Shown here: piece by piece, positions 4,176 through 31,309 of the stretch
How positions within the stretch are numbered: the first letter of the stretch is position 1
How the letters are laid out: each line of letters starts with the position of its first letter
From: Candidatus Saccharimonadota bacterium
GTDB lineage: Bacteria > Patescibacteriota > Gracilibacteria > BD1-5 > UBA6164
DNA: 32,000 nt
NCBI GenBank assembly: GCA_963677765.1
Contig: OY782392.1
Span: 1-32,000 of the forward strand
Direction of reading: 5' to 3'
Program-made: the position numbers and the translations under genes
The notes under the pieces: model-generated
Told to the model about the DNA's origin: nothing
The model's input: the letters and a program-made list of their open reading frames with translations, nothing else
The model's database searches: none

Positions 4176-4484
4176 ATGAAAAATATAAATAAAAATAATA
4201 ATAATCAAGATATATTAGCTCTTCCGTATAGTAAAACAGTACAGGAACTAGTAGATTCAACAAAAGATATTGCTATAAAATTAAGCAATACTCATATTCA
4301 AGAAAGCTCATGACTAATAAAAAATACTCTTAATAATAGATGTCAATGATATTGTATTAGTAATTCAAATTCACCAATAGTATGTTGAAGATGAGAAAAT
4401 TGTAACAATTTTAAAAGAGCAGATGATAGTCTGAAACATATTTCAGAATATGAACATAAAAAACAATTAGAAGGTTTGTACTAA
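4176..4484 (+). CDS. hypothetical small protein with a four-Cys cluster
   Basis: ATG at 4176 to TAA at 4482-4484, 102 aa, followed directly by a terminator hairpin. Contains RCQGYCISNSNSPIVCGRGENC. No family recognised. Confidence 0.4.
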
Positions 4485-4513
4485 AAAAAACTAGGAATTA
4501 TCCTAGTTTTTTT
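4483..4513. terminator. bidirectional intrinsic terminator between convergent genes
   Basis: A-run, CTAGGA (4491-4496), loop ATTA, TCCTAG (4501-4506), T-run. Sits between the + gene ending at 4484 and the - gene ending at 4512. Confidence 0.6.
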
Positions 4514-5483
4514 ATTGCATAATATCACTTCATGCTATTAATTTTTCTTCTCTTGATTTAGATTTTCTTCATTCTAGATCTTCATTTAAATATACTAATT
4601 TAGAATTTTGTTGACTACCAATATTTCATAAAGTTTCTATTCTTGAAGAATCAAGTAAGAAATCTAAAACTTTTTCAGCATTTAAAGAATTATCAGTTTG
4701 TTTAATAAGATCAACAGATTCTTTAAATCATTCTGCTATTTTCATTCTTTGACCTGCCATACCTTCTCATAATAAAATTTTTGATTCTTTTTCAGCTTCA
4801 GCTTCTTTAACTTTCATTATTTTATCAGCTTCAGCTTCATTTAAAGCAGCTTCTTTTAATTTTTCAGTTTCAACTACTTTGTTCATTGCTGCCATAACTG
4901 ATGATTCTAATCCAATATCTCTTACTTGAATAGAATCAAGTCTATAACCAAAAGTAGCTAATTTTTCTCTAAGTCTCGATTCTATATTTTGACCAATTTC
5001 TTCTCTTTTTTCAAATATATTTTTGTGAGTAAAACTAACTATCATAGCTCTTAATTGTTCGTCAATAGTTGATCTCATCATAGTTCTAGGGTCATCGATA
5101 TTATATATAGATTTAAATATATTACCTTCACTTGAATCAATTCTATCATCTTCTACATAATATATAACATTTAATCAAATTCTTGCAGTTACATTATCAT
5201 CAGTAATACCATCAACTTCTACAGGGAAATTTCTTCTAAAAAGAGTTTGTTTTCTAGTCCATTCTATGAAAGGTATAATAAAATGTAAACCTGGTCTTAG
5301 GATTCTATTAAACTTACCTAAAAATTCTACAGTCATAACAGTATTAGGAGTAACTATTCTTATAGATAATGCTGCCAAAATAATATCTAAAACAATTGCG
5401 GGAATTATTCATACAAAACCTCAAAATCAAATTAAAATAAGAGGTATTAAAATAAGTAGTAAAGGTACTATAAATCTAATCAT
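4512..5483 (-). CDS. SPFH/band-7 (stomatin/prohibitin-like) membrane protein
   Basis: ATG (complement of 5481-5483) to TAA (complement of 4512-4514), 323 aa. Joins track ORFs 5175-5378 and 4767-5081 through in-frame TGA. N-terminal TM segment, then VTPNTVMTVEFLGKFNRILRPGLHFIIPFIE, and an EA-rich coiled coil (EKLKEAALNEAEADKIMKVKEAEAEKE). Confidence 0.8.
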
Positions 5484-5611: not shown

Positions 5612-6232
5612 ATGGTTATTGAAAACAAAAATATTTTTAGTGAAAATGATAAGAAGAAAAGGGAATTAAAAGAAGAAGAAATTATTAATGAACAAAAAAA
5701 ACAAATAGAGTTTAAAAAAACAAAAGAAAAAATTAATGTTGAGATTGAAATTGAAGATGAAATATATCATTTGAAAGAATTAGTTGAGAAATGAGTAATT
5801 TCAAAAGAAACAGTAGATAAGGTTATAAGCTGAAAAGATATTTCTGAAGAAGAAATAAAAGAGATTTTTGAAAAAATTGATGAAATTGAAGAATTAAAAG
5901 ATGTTGACAATTATTTACCACAAAATTTAAGAATAACAAAAGAAGATTATTTAAAAGCTGTTAATGATGATATTTTTAGAGTTCAGACAATAACAAAAAT
6001 TGATTCAGCACTTACTCTACTTTCAAATCAAGCAAATCCAGACTCTGCAATGGGATTAAATTTATTTTCATGATTTTTAGCTATTCTAGATAAAAATTTA
6101 ATAAAAATACAAGAAAATACTATTGATGTTAAGGATTCTCTTAAATCTATAGATATAAAAAAATGATTATATAAAGATAAAAGAACAAAGTGACAAAAAT
6201 TTTTAGATTTTTTAAGAGAAATATTTAAATAA
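5612..6232 (+). CDS. hypothetical protein with an acidic, coiled-coil N-terminal half
   Basis: Track ORF 5612-5794 extends through TGA codons to TAA at 6230-6232, 206 aa. No family recognised. Confidence 0.45.
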
Positions 6233-7074
6233 TGATTTATGCAATAATATCTACAATTTTAGATTCTATATGAACAAATATATGGAAAAAAGCTTTGAAC
6301 TTTAATATGGCTAAAGAACCTTTTAGTATGTTAGCGTATTCTTCATTGTTTTTTATGTTAATTGTACTTTATTTTTTGTGAAAATTACAATTAAACAATC
6401 TAGGTATATATGAAGTTTTCTTAATTCTAATAATATTTATAATATGATATTTTAGGTGATTTTTATTACAATATGTTTATAAAAATGATAAAATTTCGAA
6501 AATATTACCATATCAAAATATTAGTAAAATACTTACTATAATAATAGGGTTTTTTATTTTTGCAGATACATCAATTATAACATTATTTATAGCTATATTT
6601 ACTGCTTTAATAATATTTATATTTAGCTTTGATTTTAAAAAAATTTATATACCTAAAACAATTAAAACATTTTGAATTGCTGAGATTATGTATTCAGTAA
6701 ATATATTACTATTAGGAGTAATACTAACAAAAATAACTAATATATCATATTTTGTCTATTCATATATAGTATGACTTACAATTATATGAATTATAGTTAT
6801 ATTAAAAAAACAATTAAATGAATTTATAAAGGTAGACAAAAAGTTTTATATATATAGATTATCTGCTTCTCATATTTGATGAGTAAGTTATATATTAAGT
6901 TTGCTTGTAATGCAAGAGTTATGAGTAATAATGAGTATATTAATATCATATATTTGACTTTGATCAACTTTGCTTTTTTCATTTTTAATATTTAAAGATA
7001 AACCTTCAAAAAAAGATTTATTATTATTGATATTAGTTTCAATTTTAATAACAGTATGATTTTACTATAAATAA
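6232..7074 (+). CDS. EamA/DMT-superfamily-like polytopic membrane protein (paralog 1)
   Basis: ATG at 6232 overlaps the upstream TAA (TAATG); TAA at 7072-7074; 280 aa. About 10 hydrophobic segments. C-terminus FLIFKDKPSKKDLLLLILVSILITVGFYY resembles EamA-repeat ends. Confidence 0.5.
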
Positions 7075-7082
7075 TAACTATT

Positions 7083-7955
7083 ATGTGAATAATATTATGA
7101 ATAATACAATCGTTTCTAAATTCATTAGGAATGATTTTAACAAAAAAAGTACTTGAAAATAAAGCAGTTTGAAATAATATTCAAACTCTTTTCAGTAGGT
7201 TTAATCATTTAATTATAATGCTTATTATTATCTGATTTTGATTTTTTGATTTTAAATTAAATGATTCATGATTTACTAAATTTGATATACTACTTTTATT
7301 TATAGCTACTATTTGATTATATATAACTTATCCTCTTAGAAGAATAGCTTATGCAAATGAAAAAATATCAACTTTACAACCATTTGCAATGCTATTTCAA
7401 GTTTTTCCAATAATTATAGGTTTCATATTTATTGCATCAGAAAGAGCTAATTTTATAACTTTTATTTTTGCACTTTTAGCATCTTTTATAGTTATAATTC
7501 CAAACATAGATTTAAAAACATTCAAAATAAATAAATATTCTTTAATGGTTTTAAGTTCCTCTATAATTAAATCATTTCAGTTATTTGCAACTGTTTATTT
7601 TTTAACTAAACTTGATGCAGTTAATTTTTATCTTTTAGAAACAATATTAATAATAGCTTTTTCAATAATATTATTAATCATAAAGAAAGAATTGAATCAA
7701 TTTAAATTATTAACTAAGAAATATATTAAATTATTAGCAATAGCCAATAGTGTTTCTGTAGTTAGTATAATAATAGTTCTGACTATGTATACAAGTCTAT
7801 GAATAATAGCTACTAGTTTATTATGATTATTATACATATTCTTTGTTTTTGCACTTGGTTATGTTTTCTTATGAGAGAAACCAACAAAAAAAGATATAAT
7901 AATAACAATACTTATATCAATATGTATAACAATCTGATTATTTTTTAAAAACTAA
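7083..7955 (+). CDS. EamA/DMT-superfamily-like polytopic membrane protein (paralog 2)
   Basis: ATG at 7083, TAA at 7953-7955, 290 aa; includes track ORF 7389-7802. C-terminus YVFLGEKPTKKDIIITILISICITIGLFF parallels the upstream paralog. Confidence 0.5.
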
Positions 7956-16959: not shown

Positions 16960-17894
16960 TGAAGTATCTTTTTACATGAAACTCTAGCTATCTAGTAAAA
17001 CAAGCTACAAAAAAACGGAAAAATCAATTCATAGAAAAATACTGAGATTTTAATTTAATTAATATTGATGATATTGATAATTATGATAATAATTATTTAG
17101 CAGAGTCACTTTTTACAGCCAGCTTCTTATCAGAAAAAAAATTGGTATCAATTGAAATAGATACTACAATAAACGAAGATAAAGCAAATTTTTTAATAAA
17201 TAATCTAGATAAAATAGTAGAGTCTACTATCTTACTTATATCATTTATAAATCCAGATAAAAGATCTAAGTTATATAAAATATTATCAAAAGAATTTGAA
17301 AAGAAAGAATTTAATATTGAAAATGAAAATGATATTTATTCTTTACTAACAAATAAATATAAAGATCAAATATCTGATTGAGCGAAAAAATTAATAATAA
17401 AATATAAGAGTAATAATCTAGATAAAATAAACAGTGAAATAGAAAAATTACTAATTACAAATAATTTTATTGAAGAAAAAGTTATTACTGATAATATAGA
17501 GCCTGAATTAGAAGAAAGTATTTTTATAATAATTGATGATATCTTGAATATAAATATAAATTCTGCTATCAACAAAATAAATAATTTACTAAATTATACT
17601 AATATCTATGCATTTTATAATAATTTATTAGCAAATATAAGAATTAATGTATTTATTTCAAAGTATAAAAATTTATGAGTAAATAATAATGAAATTTGAG
17701 ATATTTTAAACCTTTGAAATAGGTCTTTTCTTATAAATAAGAGCTATAAAATAAACAATAAAAAACTAGAAAAATTATATTTAGAGTTAGTTGAAATAGA
17801 TAAAAATATGAAATCATGAAAATTAATGTGAAGTGATGATAAAGATATACTATTTGAAATAGAAAAATCATTAATAAAAATAAGAGAAACTTAA
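16959..17894 (+). CDS. holA: DNA polymerase III delta subunit (HolA-like)
   Basis: ATG at 16959 overlaps the mutS stop (TAATG); TAA at 17892-17894; 311 aa. N-terminus YLFTGNSSYLVKQ..., with length and helical C-terminal half consistent with HolA. Includes track ORF 17142-17381. Confidence 0.55.
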
Positions 17895-17917
17895 TATAAA
17901 GTTTCTCTTATTTGTTT
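17881..17917. terminator. bidirectional intrinsic terminator between holA and the Cys-rich ORF
   Basis: TAAGAGAAAC (17881-17890), 10-nt loop, GTTTCTCTTA (17901-17910), then a T-rich tail. Both convergent stop codons lie in or next to the hairpin. Confidence 0.6.
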
Positions 17918-18126
17918 AATATATCATCTACATTAGTTTTAGTATTATCAATTTCTTTTATACATTTAATACAAGGGCTAATTCATTGAGATCTTAATAA
18001 ATCCTTTTTATCTCTATTTATTTTTCAATTTTCATTTATAATATTTCATTCACTTGCTTCTATAGAAAATAATTTATCAATATTCTTCATAGGACAAGAA
18101 TTACCACATCAGTTACATCCAGACAT
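17908..18126 (-). CDS. small Cys-rich protein (CxxCxxxC at the N-terminus, CxxC near the C-terminus), last gene of the NAS-like operon
   Basis: ATG (complement of 18124-18126) to TAA (complement of 17908-17910), 72 aa. Sequence MSGCNGCGNSCPMKNIDKLFSIEASEGNIINENGKINRDKKDLLRSQGISPCIKCIKEIDNTKTNVDDILNK. Starts 22 nt downstream of the upstream ATPase stop. Confidence 0.5.
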
Positions 18127-18148
18127 AATATATAAGTTAGTAATTAAA

Positions 18149-19027
18149 TTATTTCAAAAAATTATTTTTTATCTTATCTAGATTATCAATTCTATTATAT
18201 ATATAGTCAATATCTTTTCTTGTATTTTCATTAAAGTCATAAATATATTTAACTATATTATCAGTAACAATATTTAATCAATCTATTTTATTATCTGTTA
18301 AATTATTATCAGAATCAATTTCGTATAATTCATCACTATAAGGCATTCAATTAATAATATTATAATCAGTAAATTCTTTTTTAATAAAATCTAAATCATT
18401 ATTAGATAAATATTTATTAGTAATAATACATATTTCTTCTTTTTTAAATCAAGTTAATTCTAATCCTCTTAATATTTGTCTAGTTACCTTTAAATTTTTA
18501 AAATTAGCATCAGTTACAACAAATATCAAATCAAAACTCATTATTGTAGCACGTGATATCATTTCAACTCAAGCAGCTAAATCTGCAATTAAATATTGAT
18601 TTTGATCAAGATTAATATGATTAATAAAAACTTTAGACATTTCATAATAATCACACATACTTTCAATTCATCTTTTATCATCATCTATAAATCATAAACT
18701 CATGACTTTTATATTATTATTACTAATAGAATGTTCATTTATAAATTTATTATTGTAATCATAAAATCAATCTGTAGATTTAGGTAAATAAACTCTATTT
18801 TCCCAATCAGTCATAGTAGTACTTCATGTATAAGTCATTACTTCTTCTTTTTTTTGTCAAAAAGAAATTAAATCAGAAGAGTTTTTAAATCATAGAGCAT
18901 TAGCTAAGTTAACATTGGAATCTAAATCAAGAGCTAAAATACTGTTATCTCTAGAAACCTTATCAATAACTATAGAGCTTAGAGTAGTTTTTCATGCTCA
19001 TCATTTTCAAGCAAAGGCAATTTTCAT
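18149..19027 (-). CDS. CooC-class (COG3640-like) SIMIBI P-loop ATPase, paralog B
   Basis: ATG (complement of 19025-19027) to TAA (complement of 18149-18151), 292 aa. N-terminal deviant Walker A MKIAFAGKGGAGKTTL with all four Gly encoded by TGA (18983-19009), ALDLDSNVNLANALGF, switch II LIADLAAGVEMISR, VVTDANFKNL, ITNKY. The CooC Cys-x-Cys position reads S-M-C (IESMCDYYE). Confidence 0.7.
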
Positions 19028-19044
19028 AAAAAAATTATTAGGTA

Positions 19045-19917
19045 TTAATGACACTTTTTATCTCATTTTAATTTATCAAGATTGTTTAATCTATCAAAAA
19101 CAGATTTCTTATCAGACTTCATTTTTAATATATTATCTGCTATTTTATTAAATGAATTTACTATTTCACTATCTAATAATGAAATATTTATATCTCATTC
19201 AATATCCATTTTCATAATATCAATTGAGAAGGGAATAAATCATATAATATTAATTTCTTCTCAAAAATATTTTTTTATATAATCTAAATCAGAACTTTTT
19301 TTGTACTTATTGACTATAAAATAAACATTTTTAAAATTTATAAGTTTTAATGTCTTATATATATCTTTAGCAACATCTAAATTTTTTGAATTAGGTTCTA
19401 ATGGTATTATAATATTATCAACACTTGATATTATTCACTTATTAACAGCTTCTGCTCATGCAGCAAAATCAACCCAGACTATTTCATTATCTAAATCATC
19501 TAAATTTGATAAATAAACTTTAATTGTTTCATTATAAGGACACATTCATGTAACTCATACTCTGGCTTTTCTTGGTTCTCATAATTGAATTAAATCACAA
19601 TTATTATTTCAAATATAAGCAACTTTAGAATATATATCATCACTATTATTTGTTCTAAAAATTCTATTATTATCTTTTGGAGAATATTTTCTATCATATT
19701 CACTATTTGCTACTCATGTTTTATCAAAAATATCAGACTTTAAATCTCATAATTCAAGTTTTTCATCATATGAACTAAATCATAAATAATCAATTAAATT
19801 TTTATTACTATCAGCATCTATTGCAATAATTTTTCTTTGTTTTGATAATATTTTAATCAATCAAACACTTAAAGTTGTTTTTCATGCTCATCATTTTCAA
19901 ACTATAGCTATTTTCAT
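19045..19917 (-). CDS. CooC-class (COG3640-like) SIMIBI P-loop ATPase, paralog A
   Basis: ATG (complement of 19915-19917) to TAA (complement of 19045-19047), 290 aa. MKIAIVGKGGAGKTTL (19873-19899, Gly=TGA), AIDADSNKNLIDYLGF, GVTGMCPYNE at the CooC CxCPEN position, VWVDFAAGAEAVNKG, IIPLEPNSKNLDVAKDI, IVNKY. Confidence 0.7.
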
Positions 19918-20669
19918 ATTTGTTTTTTAGTTGATAAAATAAAAGAATTAACAATATCATTCTTAGGATGAATAATTGATTTTATATCAAAATAATTTTT
20001 ATATAAATTAATATCTATAGGTCTATATAATAACTTTCTTGTTCAGTCACTTGTTCTTGAAAGTACTAATCAAAAATTAATTTTATTGATATTTTTTAAT
20101 ATAGAATCAATATCATTAGATAAAAAAACTAAACTAGCTATAAAACAAACATCATAATTAAAGTTATCTTTATAATATAATGCATCAGATTTTTTTATAC
20201 TAATCATATCATTTAGTCATAAAACACTTATTAGTTTTTTTGATAATTCTATAGCTTCATCATTATTATCTATTATAGTAGATTTAACTCAATACTTTCT
20301 TGCCAAGATAATAGAACTCAAAGGCAAAGGTCATCATCAAATAAATAATATATTCTTTATATCATCATTAAAATATGATATATTTAAATATTCTAACTTT
20401 GTTAAATTGAAATAATTATCATAATAGGGAAATCTAACTAATTCATCATTAGGATTATCAGAAGATGAAATAATATTTGAATAATATTTTTCTAACTCGT
20501 ATTCAGCTTCAGCACAATTTTTATTTATAAAATCAATTTTATCTGAATTATTTATATTTAAATCATTATTTATTGAATAACAACATAATTCAGAAAAAAA
20601 ATCATTAACCTTTGGTGATGGAGATAAATCATCTAAGGACTTTAATTTATCAAAAAAATATTCTATCAT
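19908..20669 (-). CDS. nicotianamine synthase-like (NAS/CntL-family) aminocarboxypropyltransferase
   Basis: ATG at 20669 (in-frame TTG at 20675 is the track start) to TAG (complement of 19908-19910), ~253 aa. Overlaps the downstream ATPase start by 10 nt. LSPSPKVNDFFSELC, CAEAEYELEKYYS, NPNDELVRFPYYDNYFNLTKLEY, ILFIGGGPLPLSSIILA, YDVCFIASLV, VLSRTSDGTRKLLYRPID and HPKNDIVNSFI track the plant/archaeal NAS consensus block for block. Confidence 0.75.
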
Positions 20670-20702
20670 TAACAAGTAATATACTAAGTAAAAATTTTAA
20701 TG

Positions 20703-20730
20703 ATAGTATTAAAAAAGTTATATATGTCAA
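20703..20730 (-). promoter_or_regulatory. candidate sigma70-type promoter of the NAS-like operon
   Basis: On the minus strand: TTGACA (complement of 20725-20730), 16-nt spacer, TACTAT (complement of 20703-20708), ~30 nt upstream of the ATG at 20669. Confidence 0.4.
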
Positions 20731-20769
20731 ACTTATTTATTATTAATATAATAATATAGTTAAAAAATA

Positions 20770-20801
20770 TTGATAATCTAAATAAATATTATATAATATT
20801 T
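20770..20801 (+). promoter_or_regulatory. candidate promoter of the DtxR-like gene, overlapped by an 18-bp perfect palindrome (possible operator)
   Basis: TTGATA (20770-20775), 16-nt spacer, TATAAT (20792-20797). The palindrome AAATATTAT|ATAATATTT spans 20784-20801 across the -10 element. Confidence 0.35.
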
Positions 20802-20828
20802 AATAATAATATATAATATATAGTATAT

Positions 20829-21227
20829 ATGAATCATCTAAATGAGGTATGGAAAGAATATGACGAATGAGAGATAACTCATTCAATTCTACATTATTTA
20901 TTTGCAATTGACGAATTACATAGAAATAAATGATATGCTAGAGCTGTAGATATTGCTCATAATTTAAACATAACTGCTTGAAGTTGTAGTATATCATTAA
21001 AAAATTTATTAAAGAAAAAATTAATTAAAGAAGATGAAAATAAATTTTATTCATTATGCAACAAATGAAAAAAAATAGTAAAAGAAACTATAGAAAAGAG
21101 AGAAGTATTATATAATTTTTTTCATAATAATTTATGACTCAATGAAAGTATATCTAACATAAACGCTTGTAAATTAGAACATCTAATATGAGATGAAGTT
21201 ATAAAAAAAATAAAAGAGAAGTTTTAA
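20829..21227 (+). CDS. DtxR/IdeR/MntR-family metal-dependent transcriptional repressor (short form, no SH3-like domain)
   Basis: ATG at 20829, TAA at 21225-21227, 132 aa. HYLFAIDELHRNKGYARAVDIAHNLNITAGSCSISLKNLLKKKLI is the wHTH region. NACKLEHLIGDEVIKKI parallels DtxR EACRWEHVMSDEVERRL (Cys-x-x-Glu-His metal site). Confidence 0.75.
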
Positions 21228-29920: not shown

Positions 29921-31309
29921 TTATGATAATTCATTTGTTTCTAAGTTTTTTCTTATTAAAGAAAAGTCTTCTGGTTTTTTATCCATATTAATCCAAACTT
30001 CATATCCTCATCCATGAGCTGATTCAACTTCTTCTGCCTTATCAGAATCGAATTTATATTCAAAATCTGTAAAAGTAGTCGTAGCCTTATGAACTCAATG
30101 ATTTAAATTAGTTTTAAAAATCTTTTCAATTTTAGCAGTTGTTATTCATGATGGTGAAACTATTTCAATATCATCTCAAACATTAAATCTATTTTTAACC
30201 TCTACTCTTACAAGTTTATTTACTTCATCATAATCTCTTAAAATTCAAAGAAACGATTTAGTACCAAAACTACCATTTCTTTCATAGAATTGAGCATTAG
30301 CATTAGGATTTCATGCTAGAAAACCTGGTATATATCATCTATTTGCTATTGCAAATAGTTCTTGTGATAATTTTTTAGAATCATATTTTTCTCATCTTTC
30401 AACTGCATCAACTGCTTCTCTATAAGCTAATCAAACAGAAGCTAAATAATTAACTGTTTTATTTCTTCATTCTACCTTGAAACTTATTATTCAAGCATCA
30501 GCTAAATCATCAATATAATCAATAGCACATAAATCTCTAGAATTCATCAAATATGTACCATATTGATCTTCATCTATCTCCATTATATCTCCAGGTCTAT
30601 CTTTTTCCTCTAAATAAAAATTACCAGTTAATTCATCATAATCTTCTGGTCTACCAGTAACTTCTTCTAATTCTGCTTCAGTTCTTTCATCTTTGAAAAC
30701 TTTAAATTCCCATCTACATGAATGACTACATGTACCTTGATTAGGATCTCTATTTGATAAATAATTTGAAATTAGACATCTTCAACTATATGCCATACAA
30801 ATAGCTCAATGTACAAATGCTTCTAATTCCATTTCTGGAACTTGTTCATGAATTTCTTTCATTTCTCTTAATGAAATTTCTCTTGAAAGTATTATTCTTT
30901 TTATACCCAATTTATGCCAAAATTTTGCTTGAGCCCAGTTCGTATTATTAGCTTGTACTGAAAGATGAACTTCAACATCTGGAAATTCAGTTCTAACTAT
31001 ATCAATAAGTCATGGGTCCGACATAATAAATGCATCTGGTCACATGTCTACCATTTTTTTAAATTGAGCCATAAAAGGTTTGATTTTCATATTATGAGCA
31101 TATATATTTGCTGTGAAATATATTTTTTTTCATAAATTATGAGCATAATCTACAGCTTCTTTTAGAGTATCCATAGTAAAAGCATTTGTTCTAGCTCTAA
31201 GAGAAAACATAGGAGCTCCAACATAACATGCGTCAGCTCAATAAGCATATGCAAATTTTAATTTTTCCATATCTCATGCTGGCATTAGTAATTCCAATTT
31301 TTTTGACAT
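29921..31309 (-). CDS. peptidase U32 family protein (YegQ/TrhP/RlhA-like)
   Basis: ATG (complement of 31307-31309) to TAA (complement of 29921-29923), 462 aa. LELLMPAG, ADACYVG and the U32 signature EAFVHGAICMAYSGRCLIS, then QGTCSHSCRW and SFKVEGRNK. Confidence 0.85.

Follow-up and report, generated by a model that had tools for sequence, protein, structure and literature searches.

How does a nicotianamine synthase (NAS)-like enzyme come to be encoded directly ahead of two ATPases that resemble the nickel chaperone CooC, and what would these proteins do together? The question is raised by a small locus in the stretch of DNA analyzed here, a 32,000-nucleotide (nt) window (hereafter, the window) of contig OY782392.1 (assembly GCA_963677765.1) from Candidatus Saccharimonadota bacterium (Gracilibacteria, BD1-5/UBA6164). 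In this locus, four genes for the NAS-like enzyme, the two ATPases (A and B) and a Cys-rich mini-protein are arranged in one operon and a repressor gene diverges from them. We favor, at about an even chance of being right, a metal-starvation operon in which a nicotianamine-like chelator is coupled to an ATP-driven metallochaperone pair, and the functional statements made below rest on sequence, gene context, and models.

The locus has to be read under genetic code 25. The window, which has a G+C content of ~20%, holds 35 open reading frames (ORFs) of at least 80 amino acids (aa) with translation table 25 versus 7 with table 11, and ORF calling with table 11 was rejected, as it broke every gene of the locus into short fragments. 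UGA is read as Gly, not Trp, in this genome: in both ATPases, the four Gly residues of the Walker A sequence GKGGAGKT are all coded by UGA, as is the GGG of the S-adenosylmethionine (SAM) motif GGGPLP in the NAS-like protein. On the minus strand, the code-25 ORFs are, in order of transcription, those for the NAS-like aminobutyryl (acp; 3-amino-3-carboxypropyl) transferase recognized by PF03059 (19908–20669, 253 aa), ATPase A (19045–19917, 290 aa), ATPase B (18149–19027, 292 aa), both of the latter being CooC-like proteins with a deviant Walker A motif and a match to CooC1, and the Cys-rich mini-ORF (17908–18126, 72 aa). The plus-strand gene at 20829–21227 encodes a DtxR/MntR-family repressor of 132 aa, recognized by PF02742. 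The NAS and A genes overlap by 10 nt, the gaps between A and B and between B and the mini-ORF are 17 nt and 22 nt, and the divergent spacer is 159 nt, so that the layout of four co-directional minus-strand genes with a divergent regulator, as given in the original prediction, proved exact in its coordinates and spacings under code 25.

The first gene was identified with a wide margin. The NAS-like protein scored 162 bits against PF03059 (cutoff 27.1; E 2.4e-47) over profile positions 15–273 of 276, whereas generic methyltransferase models scored at most 16 bits, indicating that it is specifically NAS, as had been proposed, and not a class I methyltransferase. Its closest relative in the PDB was an archaeal thermonicotianamine synthase (E 3e-16), with CntL at E 2.5e-5, and the CntL equivalog model NF033601 gave 26.9 bits, far short of its 350-bit cutoff. 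In AtNAS1, E77 and Y106 are essential as demonstrated by mutagenesis, and they are equivalent to the catalytic pair E81/Y107 of MtNAS (PMC10248798). E60 and Y86 of the window protein align with the catalytic Glu and Tyr of MtNAS and AtNAS1, and neither residue varied in 32/32 sequences compared. By sequence, the ORF is a full-length member of the NAS family with both catalytic residues.

Membership of this family would ordinarily direct attention to opine-type metallophores, 92% of whose loci are anchored by the opine dehydrogenase CntM (PMC5666155). CntM and CntK were found neither in the window nor in any NAS-homologue locus examined, which sets the locus apart from opine metallophore systems of the Cnt type. 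The annotated genes of the 32-kb window were, in agreement with the original prediction, also free of CO dehydrogenase (CODH), hydrogenase, and urease. A separate observation concerns other lineages, in which a gene for a GNAT acetyltransferase comes after NAS and overlaps it by 4 nt (L004 8777–9262 and L007 8750–9241; loci other than the window are designated by our own numbers), and a database protein of 438 aa (P0023) is a NAS–GNAT fusion, suggesting N-acetylation of either the product or the starter in those lineages.

The identity of the two ATPases required finer distinctions, since Pfam assigned both to the generic CbiA/MinD/ParA superfamily only. In sequence searches of the PDB, A matched CooC1 with E 2e-19, followed by Soj at 5e-5, and CooC1 was the sole match of B (E 2.9e-13). 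A search for A homologues that covered 5.8 billion proteins gave 34 orthologue clusters with 51–94% identity, after which the score dropped from 287 to 107 bits, and the proteins below this drop bear the source name "CO dehydrogenase maturation factor." The AlphaFold model of an A orthologue (predicted local distance difference test [pLDDT] 87; predicted template modeling score [pTM] 0.88) was used in a Foldseek search, in which the top match was CooC1 (3kje; E 8.9e-15), followed by ParA-like (1.7e-11) and MinD (1.9e-10) structures. A and B might instead be MinD/ParA-type positioning ATPases that have no metal role and stand beside NAS by an accident of operon formation. They do have the common superfamily fold, MinD, ParA, and McdA structures align comparably with the model at similar TM-scores, and the tail of B, with its D-x-K-K-x-x-F-L, is reminiscent of the membrane-targeting helix of MinD. 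Yet we consider this role very improbable. The MinD equivalog model gave 19 bits (cutoff 213) and the ParA models gave 18–36 bits (cutoff 180) on A and B, the sequence and Foldseek E-values favor CooC by 3 to 14 orders of magnitude, and the database neighbors are named for CODH maturation. Furthermore, none of the partner genes minC, minE, and parB is present in the window, the linkage to NAS extends across about ten lineages, and a Cys is conserved exactly at the metal-site position of CooC. The conserved tail of B (D-x-K-K-x-x-F-L-x, window 18149–18190) could, by analogy, serve for docking to the membrane or to a partner.

CooC is the Ni-inserting ATPase for CODH and carries its C-x-C motif at the dimer interface. 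When A and B were aligned with CooC1 and 86 CooC-like database proteins, CooC1 position 112 was Cys in 86/86 of these relatives, and position 114 was Cys in 80 and His in 6. At this site, A reads G-M-C and B reads S-M-C, the first Cys being lost in all orthologues and the second being retained at the position of CooC C114 (A Cys126 and B Cys125, window numbering). Because the first Cys of C-x-C is absent in both, A and B are CooC-like rather than CooC; the earlier assignment to the CooC class thus holds in that both are closest to CooC, not to MinD/ParA, by sequence, fold, and tree, and does not hold for the defining C-x-C. The altered site is strictly kept, with the A motif GVTGMCPYNET around Cys126 being invariant (M-C-P in 34/34 clusters) and the B motif KRG[IM]ESMCDYYEMSKVF around Cys125 being invariant in 6/6 lineages. 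Both proteins keep GKGGAGKT, including the signature and P-loop Lys, the switch Asp residues, and D-x-A-A-G. The C-terminal motif of A is L-D-x-L-K-G-x-K-K-C-H, and, of its final K-K-C-H, 33/34 clusters keep the last residue, His, and 23/34 keep the Cys-His pair.

The count of Cys residues bears on another reading, namely that the operon is a redox module in which A and B bridge an Fe-S cluster in the manner of NifH/BchL and the mini-protein is a ferredoxin- or rubredoxin-like carrier. It would account for the weak matches to Fer4_10 and Fer4_16 in the mini-protein and to Fer4_NifH in A, and NifH structures were among the fold matches. NifH, however, needs two Cys per subunit where each ATPase conserves one, none of the Fer4 matches reaches its cutoff, the mini-protein is confined to the window and L099, and no reductase-type catalytic partner is encoded; we attach next to no weight to such a module.

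A and B are 33% identical to each other, and each is ~60% identical across lineages. In a neighbor-joining tree, they formed exclusive sister clades within the CooC-like set, and the best non-B matches of B were A proteins. These relationships point to an old, lineage-specific duplication that has been retained as a fixed pair, and the exclusive sister paralogy suggests that A and B form a heterodimer. No genes for CODH/acetyl-CoA synthase were present in the 32-kb window or in the orthologous loci with up to 10 kb of flank. An association beyond this subfamily was considered and rejected, as ~150 loci with distant CooC/MinD-like ATPases were without NAS, CobW, and the domain X described below, with L009 as the exception.

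The arrangement is not peculiar to the window. Loci were located by way of homologues of NAS and of A and by scanning with an alignment of B, and were re-annotated under code 25. NAS, A, and B were linked in every orthologous locus (the window, L001, L005, L012–14, L017–L023, L026, and L099–L103), and the cassette, with the order NAS→A→B, recurs in about ten independent, related lineages; recurrence of the gene order in relatives was a check set with the original prediction, and the prediction withstood it. True B orthologues were confined to Patescibacteria/Gracilibacteria genomes. The simplest form, NAS A B, was found in L020 and L100, and with the divergent repressor in L005/L006 and L019 and, in the same order up to a contig end inside A, in L018. 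The window adds the mini-ORF to the form with the repressor, and L099, whose contig starts inside NAS, has NAS, A, B, and the mini-ORF. Most relatives carry a further gene for a protein of ~500 aa, CobW-X, which is a COG0523 GTPase fused to domain X. CobW-X follows B in L001/L025 and is inserted between NAS and A in L017 and L021, all four with the repressor, and the latter position is also seen, in the order NAS CobW-X A B, in L022, in L012–14/L026 (the abundant oral GN02-872 type), and in L101–103. A COG0523 gene is present in L001, L012, L017, L021, L022, and L026, whereas neither COG0523 nor X had a tblastn match in the window at E ≤ 1. The operon, in which the original prediction saw a possible metal-handling module, consists of four real genes and represents a reduced form of the cassette, to which most relatives add COG0523-X.

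Two exceptional arrangements separate A-B from NAS. In L015 (4800–8077) and L024 (5904–9181; OZ245768.1, a 1.49-Mb chromosome), the NAS gene is split by insertion sequences, being fragmented by two DDE-transposase genes, whereas A-B is intact; the A tail of this genome reads KKIH, not KKCH. In L104, which belongs to a strain closely related to that of L012, the 255-nt upstream region to the start codon is 97% identical to that of L012, and the segment 2576–5112 replaces NAS and CobW-X of L012 (5720–7992) with genes for two pyridoxal phosphate (PLP) enzymes, the first having the ornithine/diaminopimelate (DAP)-decarboxylase fold and the second being a CysK/SbnA-like enzyme fused to rhodanese, with A-B following directly. 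The pair of SbnA-like and DAP-decarboxylase-like enzymes may resemble the products of the Zur-regulated genes for the zincophore ethylenediamine disuccinate (EDDS). Such a swap of the biosynthesis module ahead of an unchanged A-B fits a function of A-B together with a small metabolite.

The regulation of the cassette gives a further indication of its role. The product of the divergent gene is predicted to be a metal-dependent repressor of the DtxR/MntR family. It scored 41.8 bits against PF02742, above the cutoff of 27, and 16.4 bits against PF01325, the N-terminal winged helix, below the 26-bit cutoff; the equivalog models gave 51.5 and 48.4 bits for MntR (cutoffs 153 and 138) and 18.8 bits for DtxR. 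The protein is without the SH3-like third domain and has a C114-x-x-E117-H118 motif, which resembles the primary site C102/E105/H106 of DtxR, and the His of the second site appears to be absent as far as can be judged by hand alignment to reference sequences. The PF02742 match and the spacer bear out the description of a DtxR-type regulator divergent from the operon, and its orthologues are divergent from NAS in L001, L005, L017, L018, L019, and L021.

Upstream of NAS, a 30-nt block, TTTGACATATATAACTTTTTTAATAnTATCA, shows little or no variation across seven lineages, the proteins of which are only 50–75% identical, and the sequence around the block is not conserved. The window contains the block once, against an expectation of 0, and the block reads as a −35 TTGACA, a 16-nt spacer, and a −10 TAnnAT. 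The predicted NAS-operon promoter thus lies at 20701–20735 on the minus strand, with the −35 TTGACA at 20730–20725 and, after the 16-nt spacer, the −10 TACTAT at 20708–20703. The predicted promoter of the repressor gene lies at 20770–20797 on the plus strand (TTGATA-16-TATAAT, 11/12), and is the top promoter match in the region; the two best matches there are the NAS promoter and this divergent one. That the spacer is conserved along with the hexamers is suggestive of an operator that overlaps the promoter, and the block is, by this sequence pattern, the probable operator of the repressor. The position of the divergent promoter fits a divergent and possibly autoregulated arrangement. A palindromic operator within the block is not claimed, since its AAGTT/AACTT arms are not kept in L001. 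In the L012 lineage, which is without an adjacent DtxR-type repressor, a palindrome, TGATACT-C-AATATCA, is found between the promoter and the start codon (L012 5679–5693; the same site in L104) and resembles a 7-1-7 Fur-family box; as a match with 2 mismatches, for which 0.66 are expected per locus by chance, it is a lead only. No riboswitch or other RNA element was found in the operon leader.

The status of the last gene, the Cys-rich mini-protein, had to be settled separately. Its Cys residues, at positions 4, 7, 11, 52, and 55, form two C-x-x-C knuckles plus one Cys, in the pattern C-x2-C-x3-C-P with a distant C-x2-C. The chance of a 72-codon open frame at this base composition is ~0.002, and the missing Shine-Dalgarno sequence is uninformative because none of the five genes has one upstream. 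In L099, the closest relative that reaches this position (NAS 77%, A 77%, and B 84% identical), a 72-aa ORF is located at the same place with 81% identity and with 5/5 Cys kept. Between the window and L099, the ratio of nonsynonymous to synonymous substitution rates (dN/dS) was 0.32 for the mini-ORF, compared with 0.26 for A and 0.14 for B, and the hairpin 3′ of the mini-ORF differs by compensatory changes in the stem. Fer4_10 scored 19.6 bits, below its 25.5-bit cutoff, the 4Fe-4S ferredoxin motif C-x2-C-x2-C-x3-C-P is not present, and the PDB search gave no relative but a chance match. In the other orthologous loci, neither a homologue nor any Cys-rich small ORF was found after B. On these comparisons, the mini-ORF is a real gene and a lineage-specific accessory of the window and L099, and the part assigned to the mini-protein in the module stands with respect to its being genuine and falls with respect to its being a core component. 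A descent from CobW or domain X was rejected, as there was no similarity at E ≤ 1. In L100, an ORF of 195 aa without a Pfam match (4223–4810) starts 17 nt after B on the same strand and is perhaps a further accessory of one lineage, placed where other loci have the mini-protein or CobW-X.

The CobW-X protein of the relatives leads to a wider set of NAS loci. Encoded, for example, at L001 10638–12155, L012 6472–7992, and L017 3330–4811, it combines a GTPase domain bearing the C-x-C-C motif with a C-terminal extension of ~170 aa, which is X, and it matches CobW_C weakly. Domain X is homologous (tblastn E 1e-8 to 1e-36) to free-standing "hypothetical" proteins of ~200 aa, which adjoin NAS in distant bacteria (L002 9712–10314, L009 8819–9418, and L011 1953–2645). 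The X family comprises at least 49 clusters with no informative name and no Pfam match, and its invariant residues include N-P-x-x-W, Y-K-x-x-A-Y, H-C…I-C-x-x-R, W…E, and K-W. The model of X is all-helical and confident (pLDDT 86.5, pTM 0.80) and had no fold match in the PDB (best E 3.2, TM ≤0.25). The distant loci themselves are rich in metal-related genes: in L002, a Fur-family regulator precedes NAS, COG0523, X, and ZnuA-B-C; in L009, a Fur-family regulator precedes a single CooC-like gene with C-A-H, NAS, and X; in L011, NAS and X are followed by ZnuABC and HupE/UreJ; and in L007, NAS is found with a ZIP transporter, a Fur-family regulator, and GNAT, where L004 has NAS with GNAT alone. In known Zur regulons, COG0523 and znuABC occur together with NAS-like genes for metallophores (PMC6103462).

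An alternative is a secreted metallophore, in which case the NAS product would leave the cell to scavenge metal from the surroundings or from the host cell, the metal complex would be re-imported, as with staphylopine and pseudopaline, and A/B would mature a metalloprotein independently while sharing the regulon. Every bacterial NAS-like enzyme that has been characterized produces, under Zur control, a metallophore that is secreted (PMC5666155, PMC6103462), importers of the ZnuABC, ZIP, or HupE type are found at distant NAS loci, two EamA-family transporters are encoded ~11 kb away in the window, and A-B is kept without NAS in L015/L024 and L104. We nevertheless regard secretion as unlikely. 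Neither an exporter nor a NikA/Opp-type importer is encoded in the window operon or in the orthologous Gracilibacteria loci, and CntM is never present. The importers found elsewhere are of the ZnuA/TroA type, which normally take free ions. Furthermore, the 10-nt overlap of NAS and A, which indicates translational coupling, and their constant linkage argue for a shared pathway.

A shared pathway might also take the form of cofactor synthesis, with the NAS product as the organic ligand of a metallo-cofactor or metal chelate of its own, into which A/B, together with CobW-X, would insert the metal, the acceptor being a small molecule and not proteins. CobW (COG0523) and other NTPases do serve the insertion of metals into small-molecule cofactors (PMC6103462), and this precedent, the conserved order of biosynthesis followed by NTPase genes, and L104, which swaps the biosynthetic module and keeps A-B, are in favor of such a chelatase. 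The chemistry is less favorable to it, in that nicotianamine-type ligands bind metals spontaneously and with high affinity, and no energy input would be expected to be needed. In addition, no cofactor-using enzyme is linked to the cassette, and the clients known for the deviant Walker A family are proteins. We therefore rate this possibility as distinctly improbable, below that of a secreted metallophore.

The metal-starvation operon that we favor would work as follows. When metal is plentiful, the DtxR-family repressor would bind the operator over the NAS promoter and keep the operon off, and when metal is scarce, the operon would be transcribed. The NAS-like enzyme would move 3-amino-3-carboxypropyl units from SAM to an amino-acid starter, and the product would be a nicotianamine- or thermonicotianamine-like polyamino-carboxylate chelator, formed with no opine-dehydrogenase step. 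A and B would act as an ATP-dependent heterodimer with an asymmetric, composite interface site to which each subunit gives one Cys, the site being made up of G-M-C-P-Y-N-E of A and E-S-M-C-D-Y-Y-E of B in place of the two C-x-C motifs of CooC, with assistance from the neighboring Met, Asp, Glu, or Tyr and from the Cys-His tail of A. ATP binding and hydrolysis would power the capture and release of metal between a chelator-buffered pool and apo-proteins. CobW-X would take part in most relatives, and in the window clade the 72-aa protein, in the slot that CobW-X occupies downstream, may, speculatively, substitute for it as a thiolate-rich metal partner. The metal-starvation reading is supported by the metal context of the NAS homologues (DtxR/Fur regulators, COG0523, ZnuABC, ZIP, HupE/UreJ, and the C-x-H CooC-like gene) and by the invariant promoter block with the divergent repressor in seven lineages, and the cassette swap in L104 under the same promoter is also counted in its favor. 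So are the family and catalytic residues of the NAS-like enzyme, the kinship of A and B with CooC, their exclusive pairing and constant linkage to NAS, the COG0523-X fusions and free X proteins beside NAS, and the precedent of the Zur regulons.

Several observations weigh on the other side. The first Cys of the CooC site is missing from both ATPases, which leaves metal binding by A/B itself putative. The splitting of NAS in L015/L024 and its replacement in L104, with A-B kept in both cases, indicate that A-B does not strictly depend on the NAS product. The window operon encodes neither an exporter nor an importer. The Fur-family proteins of the distant loci scored higher on Fur/PerR models than on Zur models, all below cutoff, and their substrate-binding proteins scored similarly on Zn and Mn models. 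The product, the metal, the client, and the interaction of A with B are all inferred. As for the metal, Zn or Fe(II) is most likely, and Ni/Co is possible: COG0523, ZnuABC, and ZIP speak for Zn; Fe is possible in view of the Cys/Glu/His site, which is of the DtxR type, and of the distant regulators, which score higher on Fur than on Zur models; and HupE/UreJ and the CooC ancestry make Ni/Co possible. Typing of the metal from the distant regulators, substrate-binding proteins, and COG0523 was given up, as the scores were below the equivalog cutoffs and mixed among Fe, Zn, and Mn.

We also put forward, as a tentative and rather doubtful extension, that A/B represent a new class of heterodimeric SIMIBI metallochaperones that take metal from, or load it onto, an intracellular nicotianamine-like molecule, with COG0523-X or the 72-aa protein as an adaptor. 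If this extension is true, bacteria would have in this cassette their first relay that runs from a dedicated small-molecule metal buffer to chaperones driven by NTP, and the fold of domain X would be a new one that binds metal or a chelate.

The cassette bears on the question of where bacterial metallochaperone NTPases, COG0523 and CooC-like, get their metal in relation to a small-molecule buffer. A chelator synthase and chaperone-type NTPases that are coupled translationally, co-regulated, and co-inherited make up a compact system of four small proteins and one repressor. The bacteria that carry it are ultra-small, depend on a host, and have to compete with that host for metals. It also places the NAS family in bacteria without the CntM opine step, nearer to the archaeal and plant logic. 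Nothing that links NAS with CooC, COG0523-X, or Gracilibacteria was found in the literature searched, which comprised 8 million papers, and the arrangement is, as the original prediction suggested, undescribed there; it is absent from two papers on Gracilibacteria genomics and from the paper with the widest NAS phylogeny. Metal-regulated loci for NAS-type chelators and operons of NTPase metallochaperones are known; the combination of the parts is new, as are two families for which no description was found. These families, the A/B pair with its remodeled metal site and domain X, lie outside the literature searched, Pfam, and the PDB. The public copies of the window NAS (P0001) and ATPase A (P0032) are identical to our translations except for Trp at each UGA codon (8 and 18 positions, respectively). 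Trp at every UGA means that the genome was translated with code 4, not 25, so that Walker A reads WKWWAWKT. The same error is present in 32/34 of the ATPase-A clusters of the database; most database copies of the cassette proteins thus have Trp in place of the UGA-coded Gly and, as a result, lack intact Walker A motifs.

The surroundings of the locus can be described briefly. At the end of the operon, an intrinsic terminator hairpin at 17878–17913 has a 15-bp stem and a T-run on either strand, with a free energy of −16.7 kcal/mol (z = −7.25) that was equaled in 0/200 shuffles, which agrees with the original description of the operon as bounded by a terminator; 3 terminator-like sites were found in the region versus 0.2 expected. 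Because the hairpin comes after the convergent holA gene as well, it probably terminates from both directions. In addition to holA, the neighbors in the window include genes for MutS, FtsW, rhomboid, Lgt, M23 peptidase, FtsK, and similar proteins. The two EamA/DMT-family membrane proteins mentioned above are encoded in tandem at 6232–7955, with weak Pfam matches. The pseudopaline exporter belongs to this family, and the tandem proteins are candidate chelator exporters. A peptidase U32 family gene at 29921–31309 lies in a region with a markedly higher G+C content (~29% compared with ~20%), which suggests strong conservation or a foreign origin.

Among known systems, stand-alone NAS proteins are the nearest to the enzyme of the window. 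With MtNAS (PDB 3FPE/3O31) and the plant and fungal NAS, it has in common the full-length Pfam family, the GGGPLP motif, and the catalytic Glu/Tyr, as well as the format of a core NAS of ~250–300 aa that needs no opine dehydrogenase. It differs from them in being only ~30% identical and in that its gene stands together with those of two CooC-like ATPases in a metal-regulated operon, to which relatives often add COG0523-X. The Cnt opine-metallophore operons (staphylopine, pseudopaline, and yersinopine) likewise have a NAS-like SAM aminobutyryl transferase, a metal-responsive repressor, and a context of metal starvation, and relatives of the window NAS adjoin Zn-type importers and COG0523; the loci examined here, in contrast, are without CntM, CntK, and transport genes of the CntA-F/CntI type and have NTPase chaperones instead. 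With the Zur-regulated COG0523 loci (YciC/ZigA/YeiR), the relatives share a C-x-C-C COG0523 protein encoded by NAS's side, and the distant loci add ZnuABC and a Fur-family regulator, whereas the window is without COG0523 and the Gracilibacteria GTPase is fused to X and accompanied by the A/B pair.

For the ATPases, CooC (CooC1, PDB 3KJE) is the best match in sequence and fold and shares the deviant Walker A with its signature Lys and the Cys at C114. A and B are set apart from it by the replacement of the first Cys of C-x-C by Gly in A and Ser in B, and, unlike the CooC homodimer, they are a fixed, diverged pair with ~35 extra C-terminal residues and no CODH nearby. ArsA offers an analogy, in that a single asymmetric site at the interface draws Cys ligands from both of its two diverged halves, which have deviant Walker A motifs. 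A and B, by comparison, are separate polypeptides nearer to CooC, and the ArsA Pfam match spans only their N-terminal P-loop.

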